Shown piece by piece: positions 912 to 63,854 of a DNA stretch of 64,000 bases. Source of the stretch: Candidatus Aenigmatarchaeota archaeon (GTDB taxonomy: Archaea > Aenigmatarchaeota > Aenigmatarchaeia > CG10238-14 > SCSR01); the NCBI GenBank assembly GCA_039000685.1, contig JAWBNW010000001.1, positions 14,655 to 78,654 of the forward strand. The letters run 5' to 3'. A program made the translations under genes and the position numbers. Each line of letters begins with the position of its first letter. Position 1 is the stretch's first letter. The notes below the pieces were generated by a model. The model was given only the letters and a program-made list of their open reading frames with translations, did not search any database and had not been told where the DNA came from.

Positions 912-912
912 A

Positions 913-1611: not shown

Positions 1612-1646
1612 AAATTAAATTTATTTTCAATAGTATAAGAATTAAT

Positions 1647-2234
1647 ATGGACAAATCGATAGAAACCATAAGAGGAGAGAAAACCCTCAAAGAATTTATT
1701 AAAAAACTCGAGCCAAAGAGTGTAGTTCTCTTTATCATCGATGCAAAGAAATACCATAAAATACATCCAAAACTTTTGCAGACCATAATAAAAGAAAAAT
1801 GTTTTGCAGGAATTTACATCACGATAAACAAGCCTTACAGTGCTTTGATCAAATACCTCAAAGAAAACAAAATAAACACGGATAACATATTTTTCATCGA
1901 TGCTATATCAAAGAGTGTTGGAGGGGAGATAAAAATGACAAAAGACTGTTTATTCATTCCTTCTCCCTCCCAACTAACTGATTTGGCAATAGCTTTAACT
2001 CAAGCTTTAGAAAGCATGGAACATAAGGAAAACAAATTCATTTTTCTCGATTCCCTTTCAACTTTATTAATCTATAACTCCTTTGAAGTTGCAGCCAAGT
2101 TCGTCCATTTCATAATCTCTAGGCTTAGACTGTTTGGTCTTGTCGGGATGATAATCTCAATAGAAAAACAAATAGATGAGAGAATGTTAAATATTTTAAT
2201 AGAGATGTGTGATAGGGTGGTTGAAGTCAAATGA
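1647..2234 (+). CDS. RecA/KaiC-fold-like protein lacking a P-loop (probably an inactive ATPase-like domain). It is divergently paired with the KaiC-like gene.
   Basis: Size and hydrophobic periodicity resemble KaiC/RecA-fold proteins. It has a hhhhD Walker B-like FIFLDSLSTLL. No GxxxxGK[ST] is present. The start is 35 nt from the divergent 913..1611 gene. Confidence 0.3.
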   Translation: MDKSIETIRGEKTLKEFIKKLEPKSVVLFIIDAKKYHKIHPKLLQTIIKEKCFAGIYITINKPYSALIKYLKENKINTDNIFFIDAISKSVGGEIKMTKDCLFIPSPSQLTDLAIALTQALESMEHKENKFIFLDSLSTLLIYNSFEVAAKFVHFIISRLRLFGLVGMIISIEKQIDERMLNILIEMCDRVVEVK

Positions 2235-2581
2235 TCGAAATCTTCTTTCAAATCTTAAGCTTGCTGAGCTCTGTTTTAGCTTTCATAACAGTAATTATGT
2301 TTGCTCGATCTAACATCAAGTTCACAAAAGGCGAATTGCAAGAAATAATCAATTATTTTGTTTGGGGAACTATATTCATGTTCGGTGCAATGGCGGCTCA
2401 ACTTCAAGTTGACCTCTTTAATTTGTCTGGCACACCAATAGATATGATAAAATATCTTCTATTGTTGATTGGTTTTTCATATTACTTATTAGCTTCCAAC
2501 CGAATTTACAAGATGTCAAAAGTCCTAGGGTTTGCTTCAGAAGAAATGCCAAAGAAACTGAAAAAAGTCCTTAAATCTTAA
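2231..2581 (+). CDS. Small polytopic membrane protein, start overlapping the upstream stop (ATGA)
   Basis: Three hydrophobic segments. Translationally coupled to the upstream gene. Confidence 0.4.
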   Translation: MIEIFFQILSLLSSVLAFITVIMFARSNIKFTKGELQEIINYFVWGTIFMFGAMAAQLQVDLFNLSGTPIDMIKYLLLLIGFSYYLLASNRIYKMSKVLGFASEEMPKKLKKVLKS

Positions 2582-2606
2582 TTTCAAGAAAAGTTTAATT
2601 TAAATT

Positions 2607-3017
2607 ATGAAGGCCCAAGTTGCTCTTGAATATTTAATGATAATTTCTTTTGCTTTGATGGTCTTGTTGCCTTACGCTCTTTATCTTCAAACAGCTTCCC
2701 AAAATTTAAAAGAAGACAACAATTTAGCCATAGCTTCCAATTCTCTGAAAAAAATAGGTCAGACAGCAGACTGGGTTTTTTCTCAAGGTGAGCCTGCCAA
2801 AATTACAATCTTGGTTCAAATTCCTGCTAACATTGAAGAAATTTCTTTTGACGGCAAAATGATGAACTGGAAAGTTAGGACTAGCGCTGGTCTATCAGAT
2901 ATTTACTACATTTCTTCGGCTAACTTGACAGGAAGCTTGCCAACAACTCCAGGCTATTACAATTTGCTGATTCAAGCTATCGGAAATGGGGTGAACATAA
3001 GTGTTAGCCCAAGTTAG
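2607..3017 (+). CDS. Archaeal type IV pilin-like protein (class III signal peptide)
   Basis: The N-terminus MKAQVALEYLMIISFALMVLLP has a short charged leader, Q/A, a conserved E, then a hydrophobic helix. Sequons follow (NLTGS). Confidence 0.55.
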   Translation: MKAQVALEYLMIISFALMVLLPYALYLQTASQNLKEDNNLAIASNSLKKIGQTADWVFSQGEPAKITILVQIPANIEEISFDGKMMNWKVRTSAGLSDIYYISSANLTGSLPTTPGYYNLLIQAIGNGVNISVSPS

Positions 3018-3390
3018 CATAGAATTTATTTCTTTGCTCTCATTCCTTTTCATTTTTTTATTCTTCACAATTTATCACAGTTCCAATCTTTACATTCAGA
3101 CAAACGCAGCAAGGATCTTGAAAGATGCACAAACAGTAAGCGATCAAATTGCTTCTGAAATAAACTTAGCCCTTAGAGCTGGGAGTGGCTACTCAAGAAC
3201 TTTCAATGTCCCAAATAAAATTTCCAATGCAATAGATTACAACATAACAGTAAAAGATTATCTTGTGATTTTGACTTGGAACGGTGGCTCCACACAATCT
3301 ATAATCTTGACAAGAAATATCAGTGGAGAAATATTGAAAGGTGAGAACTTGATAAGAAATTTGGATGGTGTGATTTATGCTAACCAATAA
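3001..3390 (+). CDS. Pilin-like protein (class III signal peptide-like N-terminus)
   Basis: MLAQVSIEFISLLSFLFIFLFF; overlaps the upstream gene by 17 nt. Confidence 0.45.
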   Translation: MLAQVSIEFISLLSFLFIFLFFTIYHSSNLYIQTNAARILKDAQTVSDQIASEINLALRAGSGYSRTFNVPNKISNAIDYNITVKDYLVILTWNGGSTQSIILTRNISGEILKGENLIRNLDGVIYANQ

Positions 3391-3859
3391 AGCCCAAGCC
3401 TTCACTTATGATTTTTTCATAGCTTTAGGTATTTTTTTTGTCGTGATGATTTTGGTGATGGGAAATTGGTACTTTTCAGCCGTTCAAACACAAGAAACCA
3501 TGGAAAAAAATTTAGCCTATAATATTCTACTTTCTGCATCTCAAGTTTGGTTTAAAGAAGGATTTCCAAAATATTGGAATGTTGACAATATAGTTGAGCT
3601 AGGTTTGTCCAATGACGGAAAGATAAATGAAACCAAAATGGAAATGCTGAACAATTCGATCGGATATCCCAAAGCAACTCTTTTGCTCAATCTTGGCAAT
3701 TTCAACTTGTGCTATGAAATTTATGACAAAACAGGAAATTTAATTTTTCGCTTTCCTCAAAATGCAGATCTTAATTCAGCAAAAAACATCTACAAGATTG
3801 AAAGAATTGGGATATTGAATGAGCAGCCTGTGAAAGTGAGGACTTTGATATGGAACTGA
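3377..3859 (+). CDS. Pilin-like protein
   Basis: MLTNKAQAFTYDFFIALGIFFVVMILV N-terminus; overlaps the upstream gene by 14 nt. Confidence 0.45.
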   Translation: MLTNKAQAFTYDFFIALGIFFVVMILVMGNWYFSAVQTQETMEKNLAYNILLSASQVWFKEGFPKYWNVDNIVELGLSNDGKINETKMEMLNNSIGYPKATLLLNLGNFNLCYEIYDKTGNLIFRFPQNADLNSAKNIYKIERIGILNEQPVKVRTLIWN

Positions 3860-5784
3860 AAGGTTTAGCTTTCACTGCTGACATTTTGATAGGTTTGACC
3901 TTAGCCATATCATTAATTCCTCTTTTCTATGTTGGAACAGAATCAAGCCATCCAGAAATTTCTTTTCAATCTTTAAGCTACCAAGCAAATGATTTGATAG
4001 AAGTGCTTGCAAATTTAAAAACAAGCTCTTTTTCCAACACACCAACAATCTCAAAACTCTTATCAGAGAAAATAATTTCAGAGACTGAACTGAACAAAAC
4101 TTTGCTAGACTTGATAGGAACTTTCTGGTATTCTGGTAATCAAAGCATCGCTTCAAATATAACAAAAGAAGTCCTGGAAGGTTTGACAGAAAAATGCTTC
4201 AGTCTCCAAACCCAGAATGAAACAATCTATTCATCTTGCTCATCTAATCCAAAAACAGTTTCTGTTGCTTACAGGTTGGAATCTGGCTATGAAATCGGAA
4301 AGCCGGTTTCTGGTTATGTGGCAAGGGCATGGGCAACAAAAGTGAGAAAAAACACAACCCAAATAATTATTTTCTATCCAGAAGGCTCAGGCTGGACTGC
4401 TCAAAGACTTGAAATCACGAAAAACTTTGCCTTACCAACAAACATAACAATCTACAACGCAACTTTGTATGTTTCAATCCATTTCGGAACTTCCAAATCC
4501 CAAGCCCAATTCGAGCAGCTTAAAATCAATGGTGTTCAAAAAAAGAATGATGTGAATTGGCTTTACTTGCAAGAAGAAGCTTTTGGTTGGGAAATTACTA
4601 CAGCAGCCTATGGTGTTGTTGACGTGACGAATGAAATTCAAGCAGGAAACAATTCAATTTACTTGGTGATAGGAACACCAAACTACCATTCTCACATTCA
4701 TCCAGGCATGAGGCTTATAGTGACTTACAGTTTGAGTCAAGAACTTTCAACAGGTAACAAAAGCTTCAAGAAGAGATATTATTTCGACAATGTGGTGGGG
4801 AGAACAGGTGCTTGGTCGATGGTCTCTTTCTATATCCCAGAAAATGCAAAAAATGCCACAGCTAGGCTTCATCTGAAAGCTTTAGAGGTCGATGATACTA
4901 AAGATTTGTTTGGAAGAAATTCCAGCGATGTGATAATTTATTTCAATTCAGACGACATCTTTTATAAAGACGGATATTGTTCTTCTCAAAATTGCTATCC
5001 TTCATGCAGTATTTCAGGTCTTTACTATAGAAACTGTCAAAAAGTTGGAGTGATGAATCCTGAGCTCTCATTAGATCTCACAAGCAATTTGACTAAAGGA
5101 ACAAATGTGATTTCAGTATATCTGAACAATTATGGTGACATTCACTGGGGAGATCAAAAGGCGATAATTTATTCAGATCTTTTGAATGACCCAGAAGGAT
5201 CTTCTTATGTTGAAGTCTCTTATGAAATGGAAGAACCAACTTTCAATTACGGTGAGATCGATATAACGAAAGAAATGTTGTTTGGAGGCTCTGCCAGCAA
5301 CCCAAAAACTTTCAATTTCACTCTAAGCCAAAATCAAATGAATGTTATAGAAGCTTTTGTCCACATAGCCCAGGGCTTCAGCAGCATGGTTAATGCTTCC
5401 ATAAACAACTTTTGGATCTTCACTTCACCTTCTATACGTGTCGTTCCTGAAAATGTTTATGTTTATCCAAACAAGCTCATCATCGGAACAAATTCAATCA
5501 AGCTTGTGGACTTTCAGCAAGGTGGCTCGATTTCAGGAACAAACTACATCTTGCCGTGGTCTTCTTTCGAATACACCTACCTCGTGAGAGGTTTGGTTGG
5601 CTATGGAAGTGTGTTCAATTCTTCTCAGCTTGCAATAGAAGATGCAAGACAAAGACTTCTTGCTCAAATGGGTGGCGAGGGAATAAAGCCGGAAGAGATG
5701 CAAGTCGACTCTCAAGCAGTTCAGGGCATAAGATGGCTTTGGGGTCCAAGCCTGTTCAAAATCTTGGTGTGGGAGAGAGAATGA
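3850..5784 (+). CDS. Large (644 aa) pilin-like or pilus-associated surface protein, a candidate tip adhesin
   Basis: N-terminus MELKGLAFTADILIGLTLAISLIP is a pilin-type hydrophobic helix. Many N-x-S/T sequons. Cys pairs sit in the middle. Overlaps the upstream gene by 10 nt. Confidence 0.45.
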   Translation: MELKGLAFTADILIGLTLAISLIPLFYVGTESSHPEISFQSLSYQANDLIEVLANLKTSSFSNTPTISKLLSEKIISETELNKTLLDLIGTFWYSGNQSIASNITKEVLEGLTEKCFSLQTQNETIYSSCSSNPKTVSVAYRLESGYEIGKPVSGYVARAWATKVRKNTTQIIIFYPEGSGWTAQRLEITKNFALPTNITIYNATLYVSIHFGTSKSQAQFEQLKINGVQKKNDVNWLYLQEEAFGWEITTAAYGVVDVTNEIQAGNNSIYLVIGTPNYHSHIHPGMRLIVTYSLSQELSTGNKSFKKRYYFDNVVGRTGAWSMVSFYIPENAKNATARLHLKALEVDDTKDLFGRNSSDVIIYFNSDDIFYKDGYCSSQNCYPSCSISGLYYRNCQKVGVMNPELSLDLTSNLTKGTNVISVYLNNYGDIHWGDQKAIIYSDLLNDPEGSSYVEVSYEMEEPTFNYGEIDITKEMLFGGSASNPKTFNFTLSQNQMNVIEAFVHIAQGFSSMVNASINNFWIFTSPSIRVVPENVYVYPNKLIIGTNSIKLVDFQQGGSISGTNYILPWSSFEYTYLVRGLVGYGSVFNSSQLAIEDARQRLLAQMGGEGIKPEEMQVDSQAVQGIRWLWGPSLFKILVWERE

Positions 5785-31913: not shown

Positions 31914-34900
31914 ATGGTCAAACAAGCTACACCAAAAGAACAGGAAGAAAGGATAATGCAATTCTGGAAGAAAAATAAAGTCTACGAGAAGGTTAAAGCT
32001 CAAAGGAAAAAGGCAAGGAAATTTTATTTCTTAGATGGCCCACCTTATGCTACCGGCAGCATTCATGTAGGCACTGCAATGAACAAGGTGATAAAAGATT
32101 GTTACTTGAGATTTTTCAGAATGTTTGGCTTCAATGTTTGGGACCAACCAGGCTATGATACACATGGCGTGCCGATAGAAAACAAAATAGAAAAGGAGCT
32201 CGGCTTCAAGAGCAAGAAAGATATAGAGAATTTTGGTGTTGCTAAGTTCATTCAAAAATGTAGGGAATTTGCCACAAAATATATAGGTGTGATGGGAAAA
32301 CAGTTCGAAAACCTTGGGGTTTGGATGAATTGGAATAATCCTTACTTAACTTTGGCAAACGACTACATAGAAGGAGCTTGGTTTACCTTCAAGAAAGCTT
32401 TTGAGAAAGGTTTTTTATACAAGGGAAATTATCCGGTTCATGTTTGTCCAAGATGTGTGACAAAAGATTCTTTAGTTTTTACTAATTATAGTTGGAAAAG
32501 TATGGATAAATTAAAAAATTGTTGGAAAAATGAAAAAGTTATGGCATTAAATCTTAAAAATTTTGATTTGTTACCATCACACATAAATGGATATCTAGAA
32601 ACAAAAGATATGGTTTTGAAGGTCGAAACCCAAAGTGGATTAAGTATCGAAGCAACTTTAGATCACCCGTTTTTAACTAAAGAAGGTTGGAAAGAGCTTA
32701 GAGATTTGAAGGTAGGTGAGAAGGTTGGAGTAATTCATCTCCCAGTTTTTATTGAAGAGTGTAATTCAAATAAAATAATTCTAACAAAAAAAGAAATTAT
32801 AAATACAATCAAAAATTTGAATAGGAGATATGGAAATTCTAAAAGAATAGACAAAGTTATAAATAGAGTTTTACAGGAGCTTGATGGTAAAAACCTTTTA
32901 CCTTTATTTGAGAAAGATGAAAAAAATGAAATTCTTTTCCGAATTTTGGGTTACTTGTTTGGGGACGGTTCGGTGATTATAAGAAAGAAGAAAGGTAGAG
33001 ATTTCCCAGAGATTGTAGTATTCTTTTCAGCCAAATCCAAAGAAGATCTTAAAAAGATTAAAAAAGACTTGAAAAAGTTAGGGTTCAAGTCGAGTAATAT
33101 AAAAAGTAGAGAAAGAAAGTCCTTGATAAATAACAAAGAAGTGAAAGGACAAGATAACGAAATGTACTGCTATTCTTCTTCGTTTGGAATTTTACTTATA
33201 GCTTTAGGCATGCCATGCGGGAAAAAATATGAAATTGGTTTTGATATCCCTAGAATATTAAAGAAAGTAAAATCTAAAATTATTAAGGTAGAATTCTTAC
33301 GTGGCTATTTCGGCGCTGAGTTAAGTAAACCAAGTTTAAGAGAAACAGGAAAATACTTCAAGGAATTAATTTTCAGAGTAGAAAAAAATAGAAATTTAGA
33401 GATTTCTGCCACAAAATTTGTAAAATCTATTTATGGATTGCTCAGAGAATTTGACATAAAAACGAGACCTATAACAAAGAAATATAAAAATGTTAATGGA
33501 AAAGAAAAAGTTGTAGTTACAGGAAGAATAAGTTGCAGAATCTCAAATATTGTAAAATTCTTGGAAACTATAGGGTACGTTTATTGTAAAGAAAGGGAAG
33601 TGCTATCGTCTCACGTGCTTTCTTATTTAAAGACAAAAATCAGAAAAAAGTTGAGTAGAGAAGGCTTACCGAAATTTAACACTTATGTAAAAAATAATAG
33701 AATTAAAAATGGTTTAATTTGGGAAAAGATAGAAAAAATAGAACACACTGGTATAAAAGAAGTAGCAGATGTAAATGTCGGAAGGAACCATAACTTTATC
33801 GTGAACGGGTTTGTTACACACAATTGTGAAACGGTGGTGGCTTATAATGAGATAGAATACGTGAAAATTAAAGATCCTGGCATATATGTTAAGTTTAGGA
33901 CAAAAAAAAGTCCTAACACTTTTTTGGTCTGTTTTACAACCACTCCATGGACTTTGCCTGCGAATACCGGTATAATGGCAAAGCCAGATGCAGAATATGC
34001 TTTTGTTCAAGTTGACAATGAAGTTCTAATCTTGGCCAAGCAACTCCTAGAAGAAGTGATGAAAAAAGTTGGGATAAAAGATTACAAGATCTTGGAGACA
34101 AAGTTGGGAAGGGAACTCGAGAATTTAAAGTATGAACATCCTTTTGCCGATGAGTTTAAATTCCAACAAGTTTTAACAAATGCTCACCGTGTAGTCCTTT
34201 CAGACCAATTTGTAAGCTTGGAAGAAGGTACAGGCTTGGTTCACACGGCTCCAGGCCATGGAGAAGAAGATTATAAAGTCGGTTTGGAGACAGGATTACC
34301 AGCTATTTCTCCTGTAAAAATTGATGGAACTTTTGATGAAAGTTGCGGAAAATATGCAGGCATGTTTGTTAAAGATGCCGATAAGCTAATATTGCAAGAG
34401 CTGAGGGCAAAAGGTTTGCTACTTCATGAAGAAACTATTGAGCATGATTATCCAATTTGTTGGCGTTGCAACACTCCTTTACTCCAAATTTCAGTACCTC
34501 AATGGTTTTTCAGAGTTACTGCAATTAGAAACAAACTGATAGAAGAAAATAAAAAGATAAAATGGAATCCAAGCTGGGCAAGTCAAAGATTTCAAAACTG
34601 GCTTGAAAGCTTGGGAGACTGGCCAATTTCTAGACAAAGATATTGGGGAATTCCTTTGCCTATATGGGTTTGTGAAAAATGTGAAAACATTAAAGTCATC
34701 GGATCAAGAGAAGAATTACCAAGAATACCGAAAGACTTCCACAGGCCTTACATAGATGAAATAATTCTTGAATGCAAATGTGGTGGCAAGATGAAAAGAA
34801 TTCCAGATGTGCTTGATGTTTGGTTTGACTCAGGAGTTGCTTCTTGGGCTTCTTTAGGTTTCCCAAGGGAGAAAAAACTTTTCAAGAAGCTTTGGCCCGC

Positions 34901-36164
34901 TGATTTCATCCTTGAAGGCTCTGATCAGTTTCGTGGCTGGTGGAATTCTTTGATGATAACAAGCATGATGACTTTTGATAAAGCTCCTTTCAAAAGTGTC
35001 TTGATGCACGGTTTGGTTTTGGATGCCCATGGTCAGAAGATGTCAAAAAGTTTGCAGAATATTGTAAGCACGGAAGAAGTGATAGAAAAATACGGGAGAG
35101 ATTTGCTTAGATTTTATTACCTTTCGAACGAGCCTTGGAATGACTCTTACTTCAGTTGGCAAACTATGGAAGAAATAGCAAAATCTTTTGTTGTAGTAAG
35201 AAATACTTTCAATTTCGTCAAAACTTATGTTTATTCTCCAGGGAAACCAAAGGGCTTAAAGCAGGAAGACAAATGGATTCTATCTAGGTTAAATTCTTTA
35301 GTAGAAAGTTGCACAAAGCATTTTCAAGATCACAATGCCCACAAAGCTGCAAATGAAATTTTGGACTTCGTCTTGAACGATTTCTCAAGATGGTACATCA
35401 AGCTGATAAGGGATAGAACATGGCCTTTGTATGACGGCAAGGATAAACAAGCAGCTTTCTTTACTTGTTTAACTGTAACTGAAACTATAGCAAAACTTTT
35501 GGCTCCAGTTTGTCCTTTCTTGGCAGAGCAAGTTTATCAAGAAATTGTTAAGCATTTGAAAAAAGGCAAAATCTCGGTTCACATGGAAGATTGGCCAAAG
35601 ACTGATAAGAAAATGATAAACAAAAATTTAGAGGAAGAGATGAAAGTTGCCAAGCAGATTGTGGAAGCTTGCAGTGCAGCAAGACAAAAAGCAAATTTGA
35701 AGCTAAGATGGCCAATCGATTCAGTTCTTATTACCACAAAAGACAAGAGAGTTTTAGCTTCTTTGAAAGATTTGAAAGAAGTTTTGCTCAAAATGTGTAA
35801 TGCAAAATCAATAAAGCTAGCAAAAGAAGAACCAAAAGGTGAATTTTCTGTAGCAGAATTTAGCTTAGGAAAAATTTTCATTCCATCTAAGCTTGATGAA
35901 AAGCTTTTGGACGAAGCTCTCTTGAGAGAAATTGTCAGGAAGATTCAGGAAATGAGAAAGAAATTTGGTTTTGTTGTTGCGGAAAGAATTGTTTTGAGCT
36001 TAAGCTCTGATGAAAAAACTAACAAGCTTTTGGAGAAGAACAAAAAAATGATAGAAAAAGAAGTTGGGGCTAAATCTGTGGTAGTAGGAAAAACAAAAGG
36101 AAGATTTTCAGAAACTCTCGAGTTTGAAGACAAAAAAATAAACATAGCTTTCAGCAAAGCTTAA
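31914..36164 (+). CDS. ileS: Isoleucyl-tRNA synthetase interrupted by a 457-aa intein
   Basis: HIGH-type motif PYATGSIHVGTAMN. KMSKS. Editing domain. The WCxRC|ET extein junction is split: ...VHVCPR / intein / CETVVAY. Extein is about 959 aa. Confidence 0.9.
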   Translation: MVKQATPKEQEERIMQFWKKNKVYEKVKAQRKKARKFYFLDGPPYATGSIHVGTAMNKVIKDCYLRFFRMFGFNVWDQPGYDTHGVPIENKIEKELGFKSKKDIENFGVAKFIQKCREFATKYIGVMGKQFENLGVWMNWNNPYLTLANDYIEGAWFTFKKAFEKGFLYKGNYPVHVCPRCVTKDSLVFTNYSWKSMDKLKNCWKNEKVMALNLKNFDLLPSHINGYLETKDMVLKVETQSGLSIEATLDHPFLTKEGWKELRDLKVGEKVGVIHLPVFIEECNSNKIILTKKEIINTIKNLNRRYGNSKRIDKVINRVLQELDGKNLLPLFEKDEKNEILFRILGYLFGDGSVIIRKKKGRDFPEIVVFFSAKSKEDLKKIKKDLKKLGFKSSNIKSRERKSLINNKEVKGQDNEMYCYSSSFGILLIALGMPCGKKYEIGFDIPRILKKVKSKIIKVEFLRGYFGAELSKPSLRETGKYFKELIFRVEKNRNLEISATKFVKSIYGLLREFDIKTRPITKKYKNVNGKEKVVVTGRISCRISNIVKFLETIGYVYCKEREVLSSHVLSYLKTKIRKKLSREGLPKFNTYVKNNRIKNGLIWEKIEKIEHTGIKEVADVNVGRNHNFIVNGFVTHNCETVVAYNEIEYVKIKDPGIYVKFRTKKSPNTFLVCFTTTPWTLPANTGIMAKPDAEYAFVQVDNEVLILAKQLLEEVMKKVGIKDYKILETKLGRELENLKYEHPFADEFKFQQVLTNAHRVVLSDQFVSLEEGTGLVHTAPGHGEEDYKVGLETGLPAISPVKIDGTFDESCGKYAGMFVKDADKLILQELRAKGLLLHEETIEHDYPICWRCNTPLLQISVPQWFFRVTAIRNKLIEENKKIKWNPSWASQRFQNWLESLGDWPISRQRYWGIPLPIWVCEKCENIKVIGSREELPRIPKDFHRPYIDEIILECKCGGKMKRIPDVLDVWFDSGVASWASLGFPREKKLFKKLWPADFILEGSDQFRGWWNSLMITSMMTFDKAPFKSVLMHGLVLDAHGQKMSKSLQNIVSTEEVIEKYGRDLLRFYYLSNEPWNDSYFSWQTMEEIAKSFVVVRNTFNFVKTYVYSPGKPKGLKQEDKWILSRLNSLVESCTKHFQDHNAHKAANEILDFVLNDFSRWYIKLIRDRTWPLYDGKDKQAAFFTCLTVTETIAKLLAPVCPFLAEQVYQEIVKHLKKGKISVHMEDWPKTDKKMINKNLEEEMKVAKQIVEACSAARQKANLKLRWPIDSVLITTKDKRVLASLKDLKEVLLKMCNAKSIKLAKEEPKGEFSVAEFSLGKIFIPSKLDEKLLDEALLREIVRKIQEMRKKFGFVVAERIVLSLSSDEKTNKLLEKNKKMIEKEVGAKSVVVGKTKGRFSETLEFEDKKINIAFSKA
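32454..33824 (+). other. Intein with LAGLIDADG homing endonuclease domain inside ileS
   Basis: Starts CVTKDSLVFT (block A) and ends FVTHN followed by +1 Cys. Two LAGLIDADG motifs LGYLFGDGSV and LRGYFGAELS. Removal restores the conserved CPRCET motif. Confidence 0.8.
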
Positions 36165-50402: not shown

Positions 50403-50900
50403 TTGATTAGACTTAGAACGAAAACATTACCGTTTAATGAATCGTTTGCACGAGAGCTAAAAAGAATTGGTATATCTTCTAAAACTGTATATATTTCAGA
50501 GCGTGGACAATGGAATACATATGTATGTTCCGTCGAGTTTGCTAAATGGTTAAAAAGCCTCTCACTTAAAAATATCGAAGAAATTGTAACGCGAAATAAA
50601 AAGAGTACAATTGCATTCATTAGGGGATTCTACGAAAGTGAAGGTAGCGCAAAAAAGTGGTATAATGTTGTTTATGTTTCAATGGTGAATTCAAAGAGAG
50701 AGTTGATCGAATTGTTAAATAGACTCATAACTACTTTTGGTTTTAAAACAACTATACGTAAGAGATTTGATAAGAGGTATGGTTCTTACATCTACGAACT
50801 TCATATTTTAGGTAGTAGCAAAGAAAAACTTAAATTCCTGGGCTTGATTAACCCATGTATTAAAGCCAACCCAAAGCAATATCCGCTTAAAAATTCTTGA
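50403..50900 (+). CDS. Truncated LAGLIDADG homing-endonuclease-like ORF (free-standing)
   Basis: IAFIRGFYESEGSA (LAGLIDADG-type motif) followed by ...FGFKTTIRKRFDKRYGSYIYELHILGSSKEKLKFLGLI, typical of an HEN domain. The N-terminal part looks like the tail of a first HEN domain. Confidence 0.45.
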   Translation: MIRLRTKTLPFNESFARELKRIGISSKTVYISERGQWNTYVCSVEFAKWLKSLSLKNIEEIVTRNKKSTIAFIRGFYESEGSAKKWYNVVYVSMVNSKRELIELLNRLITTFGFKTTIRKRFDKRYGSYIYELHILGSSKEKLKFLGLINPCIKANPKQYPLKNS

Positions 50901-50912
50901 TATAGATCTTTT

Positions 50913-53900
50913 TTACCTTCTTTGCAAAAGTTGTCTAATTTTTTCAACACACTCAGGATTCATTAAAGTTGTAATATCACCAAGGTCTTCACTTTTCAGT
51001 AATCTTTTTAATACACGTCTGAGAATTTTCCCGCTTCTTGTTTTAGGCAAATCTTGCACATAAACAATCTTTGCAGGCTTTGCTATTGGCCCAATTCTCT
51101 TGGCCACAAGCTCTACCAGCTCAGAAGAAAGCTTTTCACTTGCTTCAAAACCTGCTTTCAAAACAACAAAAGCTATAGGAACTTCACCTTTAATTTCATC
51201 AGGCAATCCAACGACTGCTGACTCAACAACAGCTTCATGTAAGTTCAAAACATCTTCAATTTCAGCATTCGATAAGCGATGACCAGCAACTTTAAGCACA
51301 TCATCTATCCTTCCTGTAATTCTAATCAAACCATTTTCATCCTTCAAAGCTCCGTCTCCTGCGAGGTAAATTTCCTTTCCATACTTGCTGAAGTAAGCTT
51401 CCTCATATTTTTCATGATTTTTGTAAATTCCTCTAAACATACCAGGAGAAAAAGGAGGCAATATAACAAGATTTCCTATTTGGTTCGTTTGACAAGGCTT
51501 TCCTTCTTCATTCAGTATATCAACTTTTACCCCAGGAAAAGGCAAACCAACATGAGCCGGCTTGAAAGGTCCAACTCCTGGCAAAGAAGTTATCAATATG
51601 CCGCCAGTCTCAGTTTGCCACCAAGTGTCAACTATCAAACATCTCTTCTTTCCAATATTCTCAAAATACCATTTCCAAGCACCTTCATCTATTACTTCAC
51701 CAACCGAGCCCAAAAGTCTCAAACTTTTGAACTTATACTTCTTTACAGCTTCTCCACTCAATTTTTCAAACATTCTAATTGCAGTAGGCGCCGTGTAGAA
51801 AATTGTCACCTTATATTTTTCAATTATTTGGGCCCATCTATCTGGGCTTGGAAAATCTAAAGAGCCTTCAAAAATGAGAAAAGTAATACCATTCAACAAA
51901 TTAGCGTAACAATTGTAGGTGTGAGAAGTAATCCAACCTATATCTGCAGTACAATTATGAACTACTAGATTGTTTAAAGTATATGAATTATGCTTAGTTT
52001 TTAAATTCCAAACTAAGCCTTCATAATAAGAAATTTCTTTTTTATTTATCGGAAAGAAAATCAGGTTGGTGGTAATTATTGCCCTCTGCCAACTATAAGT
52101 TTCTTTGGGTTCTTTTAAATTAAATTGAGAATAAAATTTTTGAGCACTTTTACCTGTGATGGCCAATTCATAACTATCTTGGCCACTTTGAATTTTATAC
52201 CCTTCTTGCCTTTTTCTTGTTTTTTCTGCCGGTAAATAAGTAATTGAAGTAACTATACCAAGTTTATTAAGAATCAATTTTATTTGATAAGCTAGTGTAC
52301 GGGAAGCGGTTGTAATTCTTACTCTCCTCCTTCTTCTTAAATCGGTGTTACCATCTCCCAACCAATAACCTTTAATAAATTCCCATAGAAGATCTTTCTC
52401 CAGCGTTAATATCCAATGAGGGAGATGTTTTTCGTAGCTACGATGACCAAAAAGTTTGGAAAAAAATTCAGCCAAGATTACAGAATTTGCACGCGTTTCC
52501 CAACATCCTTTATATTTTAACACTCGAGCTCTTATTCCAAATATTTTTTTAAATAAATTTGCGCTATCTTTGGCAAGCCTCTTTTCTTTCTCTGAAAAGG
52601 TAAGCTGGAGCGTATCTTGAGCAATGCTCCCTTCAGCAATATAATAACCGACAAGTCTTAAAAAGTTGTTATCAATTTTGATCTCATCTTTTATTTTTCC
52701 CTTTTCACCTTTTTTAGGAAGAATGTAGTTATCTTTAGTTTTTCTGTTTTTGACAATGTCCGAGATTTTAATTGTTTTCTTTTTCCATTCCTTAGCTATC
52801 CTTGGAAAAGCAACATAATCCCCAACTTTTAAATCTTTAGCTCTAACCCATTCAGTTATTATAGGCATTCTTTTTTTGAGGACTAAAACTTTATGGTTTG
52901 GAGTCAACTCCACTGGAAGGTTAGTGTAAGAAGTGAATAATCTCACAAGCCCTCCTTTATATTCTCGGACAAAAATCTTTTCAACAGGCATAAATCTTCC
53001 TCGATGGGTAAGAACTTTTTCCCCGATTTTTATATCTTGAATTTCTTTAACTCCAGGATTTGTAACAACTAAACTTCCAGAAGGCACACACCAAAAAACA
53101 TCATCATCATGCCAGTCAAAAATCCATTTTCCAGTCCAATAAGCTTGAACAGTATAACCACCACAGACGTGCATGCAGGGTTTTGGGATACCAGTGCTAC
53201 CACTTGTTGACAAAATAAATAAAACATCTTCTGAATCCATTATTTCAGCTTCACACTCTTCGCTCTCTTTTTCTACAAGCTCGTGCCACCAAAAATCTTG
53301 TCCAGGGTTCCAAGCAATTTGATTCCCAATTCTTTTCACCACAATAATCTTTTTCACACTTGTTTCTTTTACACCCTCATCAGCATTTTCCTTCAAATTT
53401 ATAATTTTCCCCCTTCTGTAGTAGCCGTCAGCTGTTATCAGAAGTTTTGCCTGAGTTATTTGAAGCCTTATTCTTAAAGCCTGAGGAGAGAATGCAGAAA
53501 AAATAACAGTATGAATAGCCCCAATTCTAGCACAAGCAAGCATAGAAATTATGGCTTCTGGAATCATCGGTAAGTAAATTCCAACCACATCTCCCCTCTT
53601 GATCCCAAGCTTTTTCAGAGCATTTGCTGCTTTGTTAACTTGTTTGAAAAGCTCTTCATAAGTTAAAATTCTTGGTTTCTCTTCAACTGGTTCAGGCTCC
53701 CAAATTATAGCCGGTTTGCTCTTGATCTTCTCCCAGTTGATCCTTTTCTCAAAAATGTTTGAAGTTATGTTTATTTTTCCACCCAAAAACCATTTGAAGT
53801 AAGGCGGTGAATGCTCAAAAGCTTTCTCCCACCTCTTGAACCAAAAGAGCTTATCAGCCAAATCTTCCCAAAATTTCACAGGATCTTTATCTGCTTCTTC

Positions 53901-54005
53901 ATAAATTTTCTTGTCGCTAACCCATGCTTTATTCTTCATCTTCCTCGAAGGCCAATAAAGTTCACCTTTCTTTTCAACCCAAGAATTCCCAAAACCAAAA
54001 ATCAT
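50913..54005 (-). CDS. acs: Acetyl-CoA synthetase (AMP-forming) interrupted by a 379-aa intein
   Basis: LSTSGSTGIPKPCMHVCGGY (A3 motif). Extein junction ...DVFW / intein / CTADIGWITSHTY. Extein is 651 aa. Confidence 0.85.
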   Translation of the reverse strand: MIFGFGNSWVEKKGELYWPSRKMKNKAWVSDKKIYEEADKDPVKFWEDLADKLFWFKRWEKAFEHSPPYFKWFLGGKINITSNIFEKRINWEKIKSKPAIIWEPEPVEEKPRILTYEELFKQVNKAANALKKLGIKRGDVVGIYLPMIPEAIISMLACARIGAIHTVIFSAFSPQALRIRLQITQAKLLITADGYYRRGKIINLKENADEGVKETSVKKIIVVKRIGNQIAWNPGQDFWWHELVEKESEECEAEIMDSEDVLFILSTSGSTGIPKPCMHVCGGYTVQAYWTGKWIFDWHDDDVFWCVPSGSLVVTNPGVKEIQDIKIGEKVLTHRGRFMPVEKIFVREYKGGLVRLFTSYTNLPVELTPNHKVLVLKKRMPIITEWVRAKDLKVGDYVAFPRIAKEWKKKTIKISDIVKNRKTKDNYILPKKGEKGKIKDEIKIDNNFLRLVGYYIAEGSIAQDTLQLTFSEKEKRLAKDSANLFKKIFGIRARVLKYKGCWETRANSVILAEFFSKLFGHRSYEKHLPHWILTLEKDLLWEFIKGYWLGDGNTDLRRRRRVRITTASRTLAYQIKLILNKLGIVTSITYLPAEKTRKRQEGYKIQSGQDSYELAITGKSAQKFYSQFNLKEPKETYSWQRAIITTNLIFFPINKKEISYYEGLVWNLKTKHNSYTLNNLVVHNCTADIGWITSHTYNCYANLLNGITFLIFEGSLDFPSPDRWAQIIEKYKVTIFYTAPTAIRMFEKLSGEAVKKYKFKSLRLLGSVGEVIDEGAWKWYFENIGKKRCLIVDTWWQTETGGILITSLPGVGPFKPAHVGLPFPGVKVDILNEEGKPCQTNQIGNLVILPPFSPGMFRGIYKNHEKYEEAYFSKYGKEIYLAGDGALKDENGLIRITGRIDDVLKVAGHRLSNAEIEDVLNLHEAVVESAVVGLPDEIKGEVPIAFVVLKAGFEASEKLSSELVELVAKRIGPIAKPAKIVYVQDLPKTRSGKILRRVLKRLLKSEDLGDITTLMNPECVEKIRQLLQRR
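51954..53090 (-). other. Intein with LAGLIDADG homing endonuclease domain inside acs
   Basis: Starts CVPSGSLVVT and ends LVVHN with +1 Cys. LAGLIDADG motifs LRLVGYYIAEGSI and IKGYWLGDGNTD. Removal restores the conserved YWCTADIGW motif. Confidence 0.8.
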
Positions 54006-57963: not shown

Positions 57964-58338
57964 ATGCAATTTGATGTAAAAATACAACCCCCGTATTTGT
58001 ATCCAAAGAGAAAAAGAAAAGTTAAGTCTAGTATTAGAAAAAAATTAATGTACAAACCTCGCAAATGTGTTTATTGCAGAAAACATGAAGCTATGCATTT
58101 ACATCATGTTAGAGGTTTTGCAAAAGGCGGTAGTGATAAAGAAAGTAATTTAGTTCCTCTTTGCGCTAACTGCCATTACAAAATCCACCATGGTATAATA
58201 ACAACAGAACAATTGAAAAGAAGATTAGGAATTAAGACAAAGCTAAGGAAAAAATCAAAAAGAAAAAGAAGACAAGAATATTATAGGTTTGAATTACCTA
58301 AGTTTAAGCCACCAAAATTGAGTTTAAAACATTGGTGA
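57964..58338 (+). CDS. HNH endonuclease
   Basis: CVYCRKHEAMHLHHVRGFAKGGSDKESNLVPLCANCHYKIHHG is an HNH motif with a Zn-binding Cys pair. Basic K/R-rich tails. Confidence 0.6.
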   Translation: MQFDVKIQPPYLYPKRKRKVKSSIRKKLMYKPRKCVYCRKHEAMHLHHVRGFAKGGSDKESNLVPLCANCHYKIHHGIITTEQLKRRLGIKTKLRKKSKRKRRQEYYRFELPKFKPPKLSLKHW

Positions 58339-60078: not shown

Positions 60079-61731
60079 TCACAATATAAAGCTCAAATCA
60101 ATCTCAAAAGCTGCTATTGGCATTTCCAACTTCCAATTCTCAAGAACAGAAGGGTGAATTTCGCCAATTATTCCAATAGCCTTGCCTTTAACCAAAATTT
60201 CTGCGGTTCTTCCTTCGATGAAGCTGGGATGCTTGCTCTCTCTTAACTTGTATTTTGCTCCAACCAAAGACATGAAAGCATCCAGAACAGCAACAATATC
60301 ATCATAGCTTACTCTAGAATCAGCAATTGCTACAACAAGCTTCCTCACATCTCTTGTTCTAGTTTCTTGCTTCTCATCAATCAAAACAACATCTCCAACT
60401 TCAAATATTTTTTGTGGATATTCAACATGTTGGTTATTTGCAAAAAATTCCATCAAGCTTGGCAATAGCCAATTCCTGAAAACACTCCAGTTTTCCGAGA
60501 CAATATTCTCTATTTCAGCTACTCTTTCTTCTTTCAAATTCATCTTCTTGAACAAATTCTCTTTGCTTGTTAAAGTGTAAGATAAAATCTCTTGAAAACC
60601 TAAGCTAACCATGAGCTCTTCAACTTTTTCAGTTTTCACTTCAATTTCACTAAGTTTCCCTTCAACTTTCATCTTCAAAGGTTCAGGCTTGATCTTGTTG
60701 TAGCCGTAAGAAATTATCACATCTTCAACCACATCTCTCTGATGCATTATGTCATTGCGATAAGCAGGGTAAAGCAATTCAATTTTTTTGCCTTTCTTCA
60801 AAATCTTGTAGTTTGCTTTCTCAAGCAATTTGCAAATTTCTCCCAAGCTTAAGTCAAGACCAGAAATTTTTCTCACGTAGCTTACATCAACAAAAGTCTT
60901 CTTCGGCTTGAAATCTGGTGTGATTATAGTTTTGCTAGGATAAACAACTTTCACAGAGCAAATTTCTCCACCTCGATCGGCCATAGCCGTTACCATCACA
61001 TTCAAAGCAGGCATCAAAAACTTTAAGTTAAAACCACTGCACTCAATGAAAACATTCTTTGTTTCTTCAGTAACTTTTCCACTATACTCTGAGTTTATGA
61101 TTGGTGGCAAGGACAAGACTTCATTTCTTGCATCGATGAAAATAGGATATTCTTTCTTTCCAGCAAGCAAATGTCCAAACTCTTTTCCTTTTGGATGCTT
61201 TTCCAAAATTTCCCTTGGTGTCAAAGCTTCCTTGAAATCAAGCGGAATGAACTTGATTCCATCAGGCTTTACTGTTGTAAATCTTATTGGTGGCTTAATC
61301 TTATCATAATCATAAACCCCAATTGCAACTTCTTTCCTGTTTCTTCCCAAGCTTCCAGCAATTTTTTCTTGAAGCTGAATCATTTGGGAGAGAAAAGCTG
61401 GAGTAACTTTTAAGTTTTTCACAACAGCACAAACTGTGTAAGGCCTAACTTTTGAAACTTTTTTATCAACTTCAACAACAACTTCTGAGCTCTTGACTTC
61501 ATATTCAGGAAAAATTGGCTCGAAAGCCCTACTTCTTATTTCTCTTGCTATTCCTTCTGAGCTCCATAAGTCTGGCCTGTTTGTGTCTTTTGCTTCAATT
61601 TTCAGATTGTCTCCTTCCACAGCCTCTATTTCACACTTTGCAAAATTTACAAGTTCTTTCAATTCTTCTATTTCAATTTTTCTTCCGATCAATTCACACA
61701 AATCTTGATAAGAAGCTTCTATGGTTGGCAT
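60079..61731 (-). CDS. pheT: Phenylalanyl-tRNA synthetase beta subunit (archaeal)
   Basis: MPTIEASYQDLCELIGRK N-terminus. B3/B4 and B5 domains. 550 aa. Confidence 0.85.
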   Translation of the reverse strand: MPTIEASYQDLCELIGRKIEIEELKELVNFAKCEIEAVEGDNLKIEAKDTNRPDLWSSEGIAREIRSRAFEPIFPEYEVKSSEVVVEVDKKVSKVRPYTVCAVVKNLKVTPAFLSQMIQLQEKIAGSLGRNRKEVAIGVYDYDKIKPPIRFTTVKPDGIKFIPLDFKEALTPREILEKHPKGKEFGHLLAGKKEYPIFIDARNEVLSLPPIINSEYSGKVTEETKNVFIECSGFNLKFLMPALNVMVTAMADRGGEICSVKVVYPSKTIITPDFKPKKTFVDVSYVRKISGLDLSLGEICKLLEKANYKILKKGKKIELLYPAYRNDIMHQRDVVEDVIISYGYNKIKPEPLKMKVEGKLSEIEVKTEKVEELMVSLGFQEILSYTLTSKENLFKKMNLKEERVAEIENIVSENWSVFRNWLLPSLMEFFANNQHVEYPQKIFEVGDVVLIDEKQETRTRDVRKLVVAIADSRVSYDDIVAVLDAFMSLVGAKYKLRESKHPSFIEGRTAEILVKGKAIGIIGEIHPSVLENWKLEMPIAAFEIDLSFIL

Positions 61732-62560
61732 TCAAATCCTCCTCAACCAATTCAACTTTCTTTTTTGAAATATATTTCCCACAATTTGGACAGATATAGC
61801 GTGGATATTTTTTATCTTTATATTTCCAAAATCCACATTTCCAAATTTTTTCATATCCACAATATGGGCAAGGAATTTCAATAGATGAGGCTCGTTTAAA
61901 GAAAGATTCTAACTCAATTATCTTTTGTATTTTATTTTGTTTTTCTTTATGTTTACTCAAAGGCAATAAAATTTTTGCTAATCTTATCACATCCTTTATG
62001 CGCATTAACATGACTCTATATAAATCGAAATTACAAACCCCTATGCCTGTGTAAGTACCTCTTTTTCTTACTAAATAAAAATGTGATTTAAATCCAAGTT
62101 CTTTTAATTTCTTATGAATTTGTTCTAAAATGGTTTTGTCACAAGTTCCTAAACTAAATACTAAGTCCTTATATTTTCCATTATATTTTTTGTGTTTGGT
62201 TATTATCCAACTACCTTCACTATCTACATATCCTGCTAAAAAAGAATAAAATAATTCTTCCTTATTTAATATCCATTCTGGAATGTACGTGGGTTTATTT
62301 ACTAAGAACTCAAAACTACTGTTCAAAGAACAATAAGCTCTAGTAGTTTTTTCTGTTGCACCACCTTTTTTCTCATACCACGAAACCTTTCCATAGCTTG
62401 AGAATACATTTTGAAACATCTCTATTTGTACAGGCTTAGAAGATGTTACCTCCACAATAACACGATTAGAATCTTTCCTCGCATATATATCACCAGCCCT
62501 TAAACCTAAAAGATAAGCTTTTTCTTCATCTGAAAGCAAAGGTATAGACAATTCGTTCAT
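61694..62560 (-). mobile_element. Free-standing LAGLIDADG homing endonuclease with C-terminal C4 zinc ribbon, inserted between pheS and pheT
   Basis: LAGLIDADG motifs LLGLRAGDIYAR and FLAGYVDSEGSW. C-terminal CPYCG...CPNCG ribbon. The 3' end overlaps the pheT start by 38 nt. It lies 10 nt downstream of pheS. Confidence 0.7.
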
Positions 62561-62570
62561 TCACATCTAC

Positions 62571-63854
62571 CTATTCTACAGATTGCTTCAGTCTCAGCCA
62601 CTTTAAATCTTTGGAAAAAAGTTCTCTTATATCGTTTATATTTAGTTTAAACATAGCTAATCTATCGATGCCTAAACCCCAAGCCAACACTGGTACTTTT
62701 ATACCTAAGGGGTAGGTTACCTCTTCTCTGAAAATTCCTGAACCACCAAGTTCAATCCATCCAAGTTGGGGGTGCTTGCAAGATAATTGGGCCGAGCATT
62801 CTGTGAAAGGATAGTAGTCAGGAATGAACTTAACCTCTTCAGCTCCAGCTATTTCTTTTGCAAACATTTTTAAAATTCCCAATAAATTTCTGAAGTTTAC
62901 ATCTTCACCCAAAACAATCCCTTCAACTTGATTAAACTCAACTCCATGAGAAGCATCAATCACATCTGGCCTATAGCACCTAGCTATAGCAAAGTATTTT
63001 CCAGGAATTTTTGGTTTACTTGCTAAAGTTCTTGCAGACAAGCAAGTACCATGTGCTCTTGGCATGAGCTGCATTGCAATTCTTGGATCCCATTTATAAC
63101 CCCAGCCTGTGCTTCCAGCAATTCCTTTTTCATGAGCTTTTTTCACTGCTTGAACAAACTTTTTTGGTAAACTCCCAAGCTTTGGATATTTCATCATGTA
63201 AGTGCTCCACCAATCTCTTGCAGGATGATTTTGTGGCTGATACAAGGCATCGAAATTCCAGAACTGTGTTTCTATTGTAGGGCCTCTCATTTCAATGAAG
63301 CCCATGTCAACAAGCTTCTTTCTGATTTGACTCAAAAATTGTAAGTAAGGTTGCCTTTTTCCATGAGAAATTTTGTCCAATTCAAGCTTCTTTCTAACAG
63401 TCACAACATCAACAGGCTTGAATTTTCGTCCTTTCCACAATTTTGTGACCAAAAGTTCATGGCTTAGAACATCAATTATATTTCCAGCTTTAGCTAAAGC
63501 TTCTTCAACCGCTTTGTAAGTTTCTGTAACTTTTTCAACCAAATTCCTTTCAATCAAAGTTTTCAAAGTTTCTTCATCAACTTCTTTTCCTTTAGCAATT
63601 TTCTTCAGAGCTTCTTCTTCCGGAATTTCTTCAGGCACAGGTTTCATAAGAATTATTTCATCACCTTTTTTCATCACCCATCCTTTTTCCAAAGCCCATT
63701 TCAAAGCTATGGGAAAATTCTTGATTTTTGGTATGAGCTTGCCAAGAGTTGCAGTTTTTTGGGGCATGCTGTCTAGCAGCAAAACAAGATTCTTCTCAGG
63801 CAAGCCTTTCTCCAAGTACTCCTTTCCTTCTTCTGTCAGCTTATAGCTTGACAT
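62571..63854 (-). CDS. pheS: Phenylalanyl-tRNA synthetase alpha subunit
   Basis: Class II motifs (...FRPDYYPFTECSAQ..., GWIELGGSGIF, GLGIDRLAM). Confidence 0.85.
   Translation of the reverse strand: MSSYKLTEEGKEYLEKGLPEKNLVLLLDSMPQKTATLGKLIPKIKNFPIALKWALEKGWVMKKGDEIILMKPVPEEIPEEEALKKIAKGKEVDEETLKTLIERNLVEKVTETYKAVEEALAKAGNIIDVLSHELLVTKLWKGRKFKPVDVVTVRKKLELDKISHGKRQPYLQFLSQIRKKLVDMGFIEMRGPTIETQFWNFDALYQPQNHPARDWWSTYMMKYPKLGSLPKKFVQAVKKAHEKGIAGSTGWGYKWDPRIAMQLMPRAHGTCLSARTLASKPKIPGKYFAIARCYRPDVIDASHGVEFNQVEGIVLGEDVNFRNLLGILKMFAKEIAGAEEVKFIPDYYPFTECSAQLSCKHPQLGWIELGGSGIFREEVTYPLGIKVPVLAWGLGIDRLAMFKLNINDIRELFSKDLKWLRLKQSVE

Follow-up and report, generated by a model that had tools for sequence, protein, structure and literature searches.

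A putative free-standing homing endonuclease gene of the LAGLIDADG family at the pheS-pheT junction of an Aenigmatarchaeota archaeon

The pheS-pheT junction and the protein encoded within it

In a Candidatus Aenigmatarchaeota archaeon (contig JAWBNW010000001.1) the two subunit genes of phenylalanyl-tRNA synthetase (PheRS), pheS and pheT, are separated by an open reading frame (ORF) for a LAGLIDADG protein, considered here to be a probable free-standing homing endonuclease gene (HEG; the ORF and its product are abbreviated HEN). The window is the whole stretch of DNA that was analysed, 64,000 nt in length; all coordinates are those of the window, and L and P numbers designate loci and proteins of relatives. 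The original prediction had described a 288 aa double-motif LAGLIDADG protein with a C4 ribbon, placed 10 nt after pheS and overlapping pheT by 38 nt; the ORF list and the sequence bear out each of these points, with an ATG as the start codon of the ORF (Table 1). The objection that pheT might start further downstream, which would remove the overlap, fails at the overlapped ATG at 61731: the sequence ATGCC(A/G)AC.. and the PheT N-terminus MPTIE align from residue 1, the latter in about 60 relatives, and the conservation of this start makes the HEN/pheT overlap genuine. The spacer of 10 nt leaves no room for a separate promoter, so HEN is presumably co-transcribed with pheS. The GC content of HEN is 0.30, as against 0.36-0.38 for pheS and pheT; the protein from the near-identical strain L001 already bears the NCBI name "LAGLIDADG family homing endonuclease".

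Table 1. Features of the pheS-pheT locus in window coordinates
Feature	Position	Strand	Details
pheS (PheRS alpha)	62571..63854	-	427 aa; Pfam tRNA-synt_2d, E 5.7e-79; hybrid gene
Imported (apparently co-converted) pheS 3' part	62571..62960	-	PheS residue ~299 to stop; identity profile
Replacement pheS tail from the cassette	62571..62606	-	LKWLRLKQSVE + TAG; junction alignment
Spacer GTAGATGTGA	62561..62570	-	10 nt, pheS stop to HEN ATG
Probable free-standing LAGLIDADG homing endonuclease gene (HEG/HEN)	61694..62560	-	288 aa
LAGLIDADG motif 1	62486..62512	-	L17-I25, LLGLRAGDI, catalytic D24
LAGLIDADG motif 2	62213..62239	-	L108-G116, LAGYVDSEG, catalytic E115
C4 zinc ribbon	61781..61870	-	C231, C234, C257, C260; presumed accessory DNA-binding module
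Native pheS tail remnant TTGAATTGGTTGAGGAGGATTTGA	61732..61755	-	LNWLRRI and stop in old pheS frame; junction alignment
pheT Shine-Dalgarno GAGGAGG	61738-61744	-	inside native-tail remnant, HEN coding
HEN/pheT overlap	61694..61731	-	38 nt; HEN TGA at 61694-61696
pheT (PheRS beta)	60079..61731	-	550 aa; Pfam tRNA_synthFbeta, B5, B3_4; native backbone

LAGLIDADG homing endonucleases cleave long targets site-specifically and leave 4-nt 3' overhangs. HEN matches the Pfam family LAGLIDADG_3 with 36 bits (gathering cut-off 22.5; E 8.6e-9); a PDB sequence search returned weak, motif-level matches to I-CreI and I-OnuI derivatives, motif 2 aligning with the I-CreI motif. The AlphaFold2 model, built with 39 homologues, has a mean predicted local distance difference test score (pLDDT) of 90.9; in a Foldseek search of the PDB its best matches are monomeric double-motif LAGLIDADG enzymes, namely E-DreI (E 7e-10), PI-PfuI, bI3 maturase, I-Tsp061I, I-AniI, I-OnuI, I-SceI, and I-DmoI, with a Foldseek probability of 1.00 for E-DreI, PI-PfuI, I-AniI, I-OnuI, I-SceI, and I-DmoI. 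HEN is thus confidently predicted to fold as the tandem alpha-beta-beta-alpha-beta-beta-alpha DNA-binding saddle of a double LAGLIDADG enzyme; by motifs, profile match, and modeled fold the protein appears to be of the monomeric two-motif type. It shares the fold, both catalytic motifs, and a typical core length with I-DmoI/E-DreI, I-Tsp061I, PI-PfuI, I-AniI, I-OnuI, and I-SceI; unlike such enzymes, which are intron- or intein-encoded and only 10-24% identical to it, HEN carries an added C-terminal C4 ribbon. Beta strands are predicted at residues 239-265 of the ribbon region in the model; the matches of the ribbon to HVO_2753-like, Lar, IS1/IS1595, and TFIIB ribbons all fall below the curated cut-offs (E 0.0044 for the N-terminal ribbon of IS1/IS1595) and do not settle its type.

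A protein search recovered about 40 homologues with 43-74% identity over about 90% of the HEN query. Most are about 330 aa in length and possess an extra N-terminal helix-turn-helix (HTH)-like domain of about 50 aa, for which only faint matches to HTH_28, GcrA, and UPF0175 were obtained; this domain is absent from the window copy. Variants without the HTH-like domain arose several times and are intact (P0004, P0005, P0008, P0011, P0012, P0014, P0015, P0029). Residues D24 and E115 and the four ribbon cysteines are invariant in all 14 ORFs checked; in an alignment of 39 proteins E115 never varies, and D24 and the four cysteines reach a conservation of at least 90%. All 14 HEG ORFs examined are intact with dN/dS of 0.10-0.17, and the window and L078 copies of HEN differ by seven synonymous and four non-synonymous substitutions. 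Intact ORFs, invariant residues, and low dN/dS are signs of an active enzyme; activity is predicted on these grounds.

Occupied and empty sites and the origin of the pheS 3' end

Sampling of relatives was by a scan of metagenome contigs with PheS alignment, which yielded 80 PheS relatives (46-91% PheS identity). That pheS and pheT are normally adjacent, as the original prediction had it, is confirmed by 59 of these 80, in which the two genes form an empty junction with nothing between them (-25 to +13 nt from the pheS stop to the pheT ATG); the HEG is carried by only two, L078 and L087. Precise empty sites are found in the closest relatives, and the objection that every relative might carry the gene fails on the same 59 loci. 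Comparison shows an abutting or overlapping pheS and pheT to be the ancestral state. Close relatives of HEN (41-99% identity) were placed in 15 distinct contexts besides the window: L001-L006 from reference genomes, L078 and L087 from the metagenome scan, and L158, L160, L161, and L163-L166 from contig look-ups. All 15 have the order pheS, HEG, pheT on one strand, with the HEG ending at or inside the pheT start; for most occupied loci the nearest host neighbours are empty. L001, a contig of the metagenome-assembled genome (MAG) DRTY-6_201808_bins_83, has the same arrangement as the window and a HEN 99% identical at the protein level. The closest backbone to the window is that of L079, with about 90-92% DNA identity and an empty site; L079 and the occupied L078 come from the same metagenome, Ga0105162.

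Larger gaps between pheS and pheT occur in the distant relatives L089, L132, L155, L112, L143, L149, L124, and L131. Decayed HEGs were considered as their content and rejected, as translations judged by eye show unrelated genes: a ROK-like kinase, an iron alcohol dehydrogenase-like protein, a Nudix-like protein, and small toxin/antitoxin-like ORFs. Among the inserts, which include the gaps of L143 and L149, is a small ORF pair resembling a toxin/antitoxin module. A conserved ORF of about 90 aa with no Pfam match lies at the junction in L124 (6224-6502) and L131 (1117-1343); its pattern is ..KWHFHILTP.C.FS...YSIVFE.EK......FF.EKPPRQE.LEILFHG.

The tails of pheS in the window, L001, and L078 were compared with those at the empty sites of L079 and L080. 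The empty site of L079 reads ...TCCAAAGAT TTGAACTGGTTGAGGAGGAGTTGA ATGCC...; pheS ends there in ...SKDLNWLRRS, with its TGA stop abutting the ATG of pheT, and the L079-type empty junction reads ...TTTTCCAAAGATTTGAACTGGTTGAGGAGG... overall. On the gene strand of the window, ...TCCAAAGAT is followed by the tail TTAAAGTGGCTGAGACTGAAGCAATCTGTAGAATAG (LKWLRLKQSVE and stop), the 10-nt spacer, HEN, TTGAATTGGTTGAGGAGGATTTGA, and ATGCC, the start of pheT; the replacement tail LKWLRLKQSVE thus stands in place of the native LNWLRR(S/I). Of the 24 nt of TTGAATTGGTTGAGGAGGATTTGA, 22 agree with the tail of L079, and the sequence is a remnant of the native tail; the remnant is translated in another frame as ...ELVEEDLNA... 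of HEN while still supplying the Shine-Dalgarno sequence and start context of pheT. Past the remnant HEN reads the first 12 codons of pheT in another frame up to a TGA. Since no stop codon for HEN comes with the cassette, the ORF reads through the remnant and 38 nt of pheT; the reading of the native tail as the C-terminus of HEN explains the HEN/pheT overlap, and the read-through of a host-derived tail explains why only about 90% of the query aligns to its homologues. Many ORFs of the family bring no stop with them and end inside pheT (e.g., in ...CQQ and a stop, from ATGCCAACAATAG in the +1 frame), which makes the overlap a habit of the family; the 38 nt of the window are the longest overlap among the junctions examined. 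Other clades are without the remnant, such as that of L166 (HEN 74% identical); the remnant therefore marks how the sub-lineage of the window was founded.

The identity profile along the locus is discontinuous. Between the window and L078 the DNA identity is 0.840 for the 5' part of pheS (63854-62961), 0.978 for its 3' part (62960-62600), 0.990 for HEN, and 0.829 for pheT; between the window and L079 it is 0.898 and 0.777 for the 5' and 3' parts of pheS and 0.919 for pheT, HEN being absent. The window and L078 therefore have in common a block of about 1.2 kb at 98-99% identity within flanks of 83-84%, made up of the terminal ~360-390 nt of pheS, its own tail and stop included, the 10-nt spacer, and the HEG. 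The shifts in mismatch density are significant by Fisher tests (p 1e-49 to 7e-8; p = 3e-37 and 7e-8 for the pheS 3' tract), and the mismatch lists place the left breakpoint near 62960 and the right one between about 61745 and 61690. The comparison with the near-identical strain L001 has the same form: 0.994-0.996 for the tract and HEN, 0.958-0.972 for the flanks (p = 1e-7). By these comparisons the lineage of the window is shown to have an L079-like backbone that received HEN and the pheS 3' end, in a recent transfer, from an L078-like lineage, and the shared block looks like a co-conversion tract. The combination of an L079-like backbone with an L078-like 3' tract makes PheS a hybrid from about residue 299; about 895 nt at the 5' end of the gene belong to the native backbone and about 390 nt at the 3' end are donor-derived.

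Over longer distances the HEG and its hosts are uncoupled. HEG distances do not follow the combined PheS and PheT distances (Mantel r = 0.003, p = 0.44, with L078 removed), whereas PheS and PheT distances follow each other (Mantel r = 0.73, p = 4e-4); on these distances the HEG phylogeny is incongruent with that of the hosts. L164 and L165 have hosts that are 75% identical and HEGs that are 49% identical; L005, the most divergent host, nevertheless carries a HEN 68% identical to that of L003. As a probe for habitual co-conversion, HEG distances were also set against those of the PheS C-terminal and PheT N-terminal parts, and no deep-time link was detected (Mantel r -0.13 to 0.19).

Proposed homing and the alternatives to it

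The ORF is very likely a free-standing, site-specific LAGLIDADG HEG whose homing site is the pheS-pheT junction of Aenigmatarchaeota-like archaea. Comparison of the loci shows a presence/absence polymorphism at one site, horizontal movement with conversion of flanking pheS sequence, and the preservation of both host genes; the gene lies outside any intron or intein, as is characteristic of free-standing HEGs. The original prediction offered two accounts of the junction. A homing insertion that preserves pheT expression agrees with the empty sites, the block of 98-99% identity, and the incongruent tree; the description "intergenic" does not hold strictly in the window lineage, where the insertion point is 24 nt within the former 3' end of pheS and a new pheS tail comes with the cassette. 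The second account, that the C-terminus of HEN was recruited into the operon junction, is to be reversed: it is the host junction that is read through as the last ~20 residues of HEN.

In the proposed mechanism the enzyme would bind the uninterrupted pheS end and pheT start of HEG-less genomes through its LAGLIDADG core and zinc ribbon, and would introduce a double-strand break at the insertion point or at a more upstream position in pheS; judged from the edge of the remnant, the cut would lie near the boundary between ...CCAAAGAT and TTGAAC..., 24 nt before the pheT ATG. Repair from HEG-bearing DNA would copy the HEG and convert the flanking pheS sequence. Occupied alleles would be immune, as their site is interrupted and their new pheS tail recoded, and expression of the HEG most likely rides on the pheS transcript. 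As the ribosome-binding site and start of pheT lie inside the 3' end of the HEG, only a precise deletion would be harmless to pheT. Free-standing phage enzymes are known to cleave hundreds of bp or more from their own gene (PMC2988022); T4 mobE shares a transcript with nrdA, and the nrdB promoter lies inside mobE, which provides the same argument against deletion (PMC2790892).

Several points weigh against this reading. We infer both the cleavage activity and the target site from sequence. The shared block could in principle move by ordinary homologous recombination without the help of an endonuclease, and the conversion tract is one-sided, with about 360-390 nt upstream and almost none downstream; the position of cleavage is uncertain, since the one-sided tract documents a single event. 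L078, as a contig from a metagenome, might be a chimera of strains; neither the breakpoint between the window and L079 nor the independent assembly L001 depends on it. Strong purifying selection and integration into the operon are also expected of a gene that benefits its host. The window copy has no N-terminal HTH-like domain, which is common to most of the family, and the enzyme could therefore be weakened or mobilised in trans.

The last of these points bears on the possibility that the window copy is an inactive or passive relic, which homed once, no longer cleaves in its HTH-less form, and was moved with its block by ordinary homologous recombination or transformation. The life cycles of HEGs commonly end in decay, and the copy in the window has lost, besides the HTH-like domain, the ~200-nt region with promoter and small ORF found in L002, L003, L005, and L006 (see below). 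This explanation is considered unlikely: the HTH-less variants that arose repeatedly remain intact, in the window, L001, and L078 the HEG occupies the centre of the recombined block, and the substitutions between the window and L078 are mostly synonymous, with the catalytic residues intact.

A second alternative is that of a domesticated LAGLIDADG protein with a host role at the pheST operon, as a DNA- or RNA-binding regulator or a factor associated with the aminoacyl-tRNA synthetase (aaRS), inherited vertically like WhiA and the maturases. The constant operon position, the translationally packed arrangement between pheS and pheT, the intact ORFs under purifying selection, and the occurrence of WhiA and bI3 maturase among the fold matches would fit such a protein. 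Its probability is nevertheless very small, as the gene is absent from the 59 empty relatives, including the closest backbone L079, its distances do not co-diverge with those of PheS or PheT, and it is 99% identical across hosts that are 83-84% identical. WhiA-like proteins have lost their catalytic residues and are conserved vertically throughout a lineage; here the catalytic acidic residues are invariant and the distribution is patchy. The presence/absence pattern and the incongruent phylogeny already largely refute domestication, and on the same two grounds the more specific candidate of a conserved PheRS-associated factor was rejected.

A transposon or insertion sequence (IS)-like element, or a degenerate intein or intron ORF, in place of a free-standing HEG is hardly tenable: the weak IS1/IS1595 ribbon match and the LAGLIDADG-bearing inteins elsewhere in the window speak for it, but HEN has no transposase domain (Pfam) and no Hint or Intein_splicing domain, unlike the IleRS and Acs inteins of the window, a TAG stop separates it from pheS, and every located context is one same site. 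No terminal inverted repeats were found at the cassette boundaries, and no Rfam family, introns included, matches 61400-62900 even at E <= 1; a tRNA search of the whole window returned one tRNA only. HEN shows no meaningful similarity to the two intein endonuclease domains (IleRS and Acs) of the window, and no relatives of HEN were found among IMG/VR viral contigs.

Compared with known systems, the preferred reading as a free-standing HEG has its closest parallels in the mobile ORFs (mORFs) of fungal mitochondria, described in atp6 of Allomyces macrogynus and in atp6, atp9, cox2, and nad3 of Glomus, in which an endonuclease ORF (LAGLIDADG or GIY-YIG) and a foreign replacement C-terminus sit in the 3' end of a conserved gene, with the native C-terminus downstream (PMC3630166). 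The same order of foreign C-terminal segment, endonuclease ORF, and native remnant is found at the window locus: the tail at 62571-62606 lies within a foreign tract of ~390 nt, and the remnant at 61732-61755 is, as in the mORFs, closer to HEG-less relatives. The window locus differs in lying on an archaeal chromosome rather than in an organelle, in an ORF that is not fused in frame to the host gene, in a remnant that provides the following essential gene with its ribosome-binding site and codes for the tail of the endonuclease, and in the extra domains, i.e., the zinc ribbon and, in relatives, the HTH-like domain. T4 mobE, an example of "intronless homing", is likewise free-standing and lies between two subunit genes, nrdA and nrdB, of one essential enzyme (PMC2790892, PMC2988022); in both cases there is no room for an own promoter and co-transcription with the upstream gene is likely, and the 3' end of the HEG contains the expression signals of the gene downstream, which selects against deletion. 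Free-standing T4 HEGs also co-convert flanking markers, possibly from a cleavage site distant from the insertion. The T4 enzymes are HNH or GIY-YIG proteins rather than LAGLIDADG proteins, their cleavage sites are mapped whereas the site here is inferred, and they spread between co-infecting phages in place of cellular chromosomes.

By description only, HEN is also similar to yeast HO, a free-standing LAGLIDADG enzyme dependent on a C-terminal zinc-binding DNA-recognition domain; HO, however, is of intein origin, serves as a domesticated enzyme in mating-type switching, and does not act as a homing element. A search of one literature library returned no paper linking homing endonucleases to pheS or pheT or describing the HEN family. 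The kind of element is well known; the window gene is a new archaeal member with an accessory zinc ribbon.

Cassette variants, distant relatives, and significance

In four loci about 200 nt separate the pheS stop from the HTH-LAGLIDADG gene (L002:5602-5805, L003:5603-5805, L005:5607-5802, L006:5612-5793). The region encodes a conserved protein of 46-47 aa, ..FDAKxWKTGNALVITIPSxxVKKFKxKEKExLEVTIKR, whose MazE/AbrB-type matches (E 3e-5 to 3e-4) fall narrowly short of the Pfam cut-off; this ORF is preceded by a conserved TATA-like block rich in A/T (TTTAAATATATGTAAATACAAAATATATAC), and both are missing from the window copy. The cassette of these four loci is a two-gene unit, possibly with its own promoter. 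L004 has extra genes between pheS and HEN and a small ORF before pheT: the former comprise a cassette resembling a diversity-generating retroelement (DGR; L004:1181-4196) with a bAvd-like protein, a reverse transcriptase, and an upstream 301-aa ORF, and the latter is an 88-aa ORF with a faint match to the YafQ toxin (L004:5571-5837).

The window has a high density of selfish nuclease genes and of aaRS genes (IleRS, AlaRS, LeuRS, PheRS). Near-identical copies of HEN elsewhere, which the original prediction proposed to look for, do not occur in the window; the best match is a second free-standing LAGLIDADG_3 ORF at 50403-50900 (+), 165 aa with a single motif (Pfam E 1.9e-13), which is 28% identical to HEN over 75 aa (E 0.15). 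This ORF is convergent on the acetyl-CoA synthetase (Acs) gene at 50913-54005 (-), 12 nt from its 3' end, a placement at the end of a housekeeping gene that is shared with the distant relatives of HEN; the Acs gene contains an intein with a LAGLIDADG domain, as does the 1416 aa isoleucyl-tRNA synthetase gene at 31914-36164 (+). A 124-aa HNH endonuclease ORF lies at 57964-58338 (+), about 1.7 kb beyond the 3' end of pheT.

Distant relatives of HEN (30-45% identity over the LAGLIDADG core; L007-L077, e.g., L047, L009, L067, L050, L038/L016, L046) are located at the ends of housekeeping genes: upstream of metG (12 loci), convergent on the genes for H+-pyrophosphatase (9), groEL (7), and uvrA (6), between gatD and gatE (5), and adjoining the HMG-CoA reductase gene (2). 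Their hosts include Aenigmatarchaeota, Woesearchaeota, Nanoarchaeota, Hadarchaeota, Thaumarchaeota/Nitrososphaerota, and many bacteria of the candidate phyla radiation (CPR). In L075 (JAVZHJ010000037, from the same MAG as L001; features at 34-507, 446-3058 (-), and 3245-4051) a truncated HEN-like ORF is convergent on, and overlaps, the 3' end of a gene for an 870-aa protein; by eye, this protein has an intein-like insertion with LAGLIDADG motifs, and the contig also holds a separate 268-aa HTH-LAGLIDADG ORF.

There is, in our estimate, an even chance that the window gene represents one clade of a large radiation of free-standing LAGLIDADG genes, apparently not described before, in ultra-small (DPANN-type) archaea and CPR bacteria, in which most members have the N-terminal HTH-like domain, some have a small MazE/AbrB-like partner gene and a TATA-like promoter of their own, and each clade appears to be specific for the terminus of a single highly conserved housekeeping gene or pair of genes (pheS/pheT, gatD/gatE, metG, H+-pyrophosphatase, groEL, uvrA, HMG-CoA reductase). 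If this is true and all are active homing elements, homing into chromosomes without introns or inteins would be a common form of parasitism of essential genes in DPANN and CPR lineages; the radiation would also offer many natural meganucleases equipped with accessory DNA-binding modules.

At the pheS-pheT junction itself, what is probably a homing event in an uncultivated archaeon is seen almost as a before-and-after pair, with empty and occupied alleles that share a metagenome, a conversion tract that could be mapped, a hybrid pheS gene, and a retained target remnant that fixes the insertion point to within a few bases; this provides a target sequence that can be tested directly, for a LAGLIDADG enzyme that is compact (288 aa) and bears a zinc ribbon. 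The locus shows how a selfish gene may reside inside the translationally coupled operon of an essential two-subunit enzyme while leaving the operon unbroken: the gene gives pheS a new 3' end and keeps the ribosome-binding site of pheT in its own coding tail, and would thus be hard to delete. For annotation, the "extra" ORFs between pheS and pheT in Aenigmatarchaeota-like archaea are probably to be regarded as parasites and not as accessory subunits of PheRS, and the 3' third of pheS can differ in ancestry from the rest of the gene.

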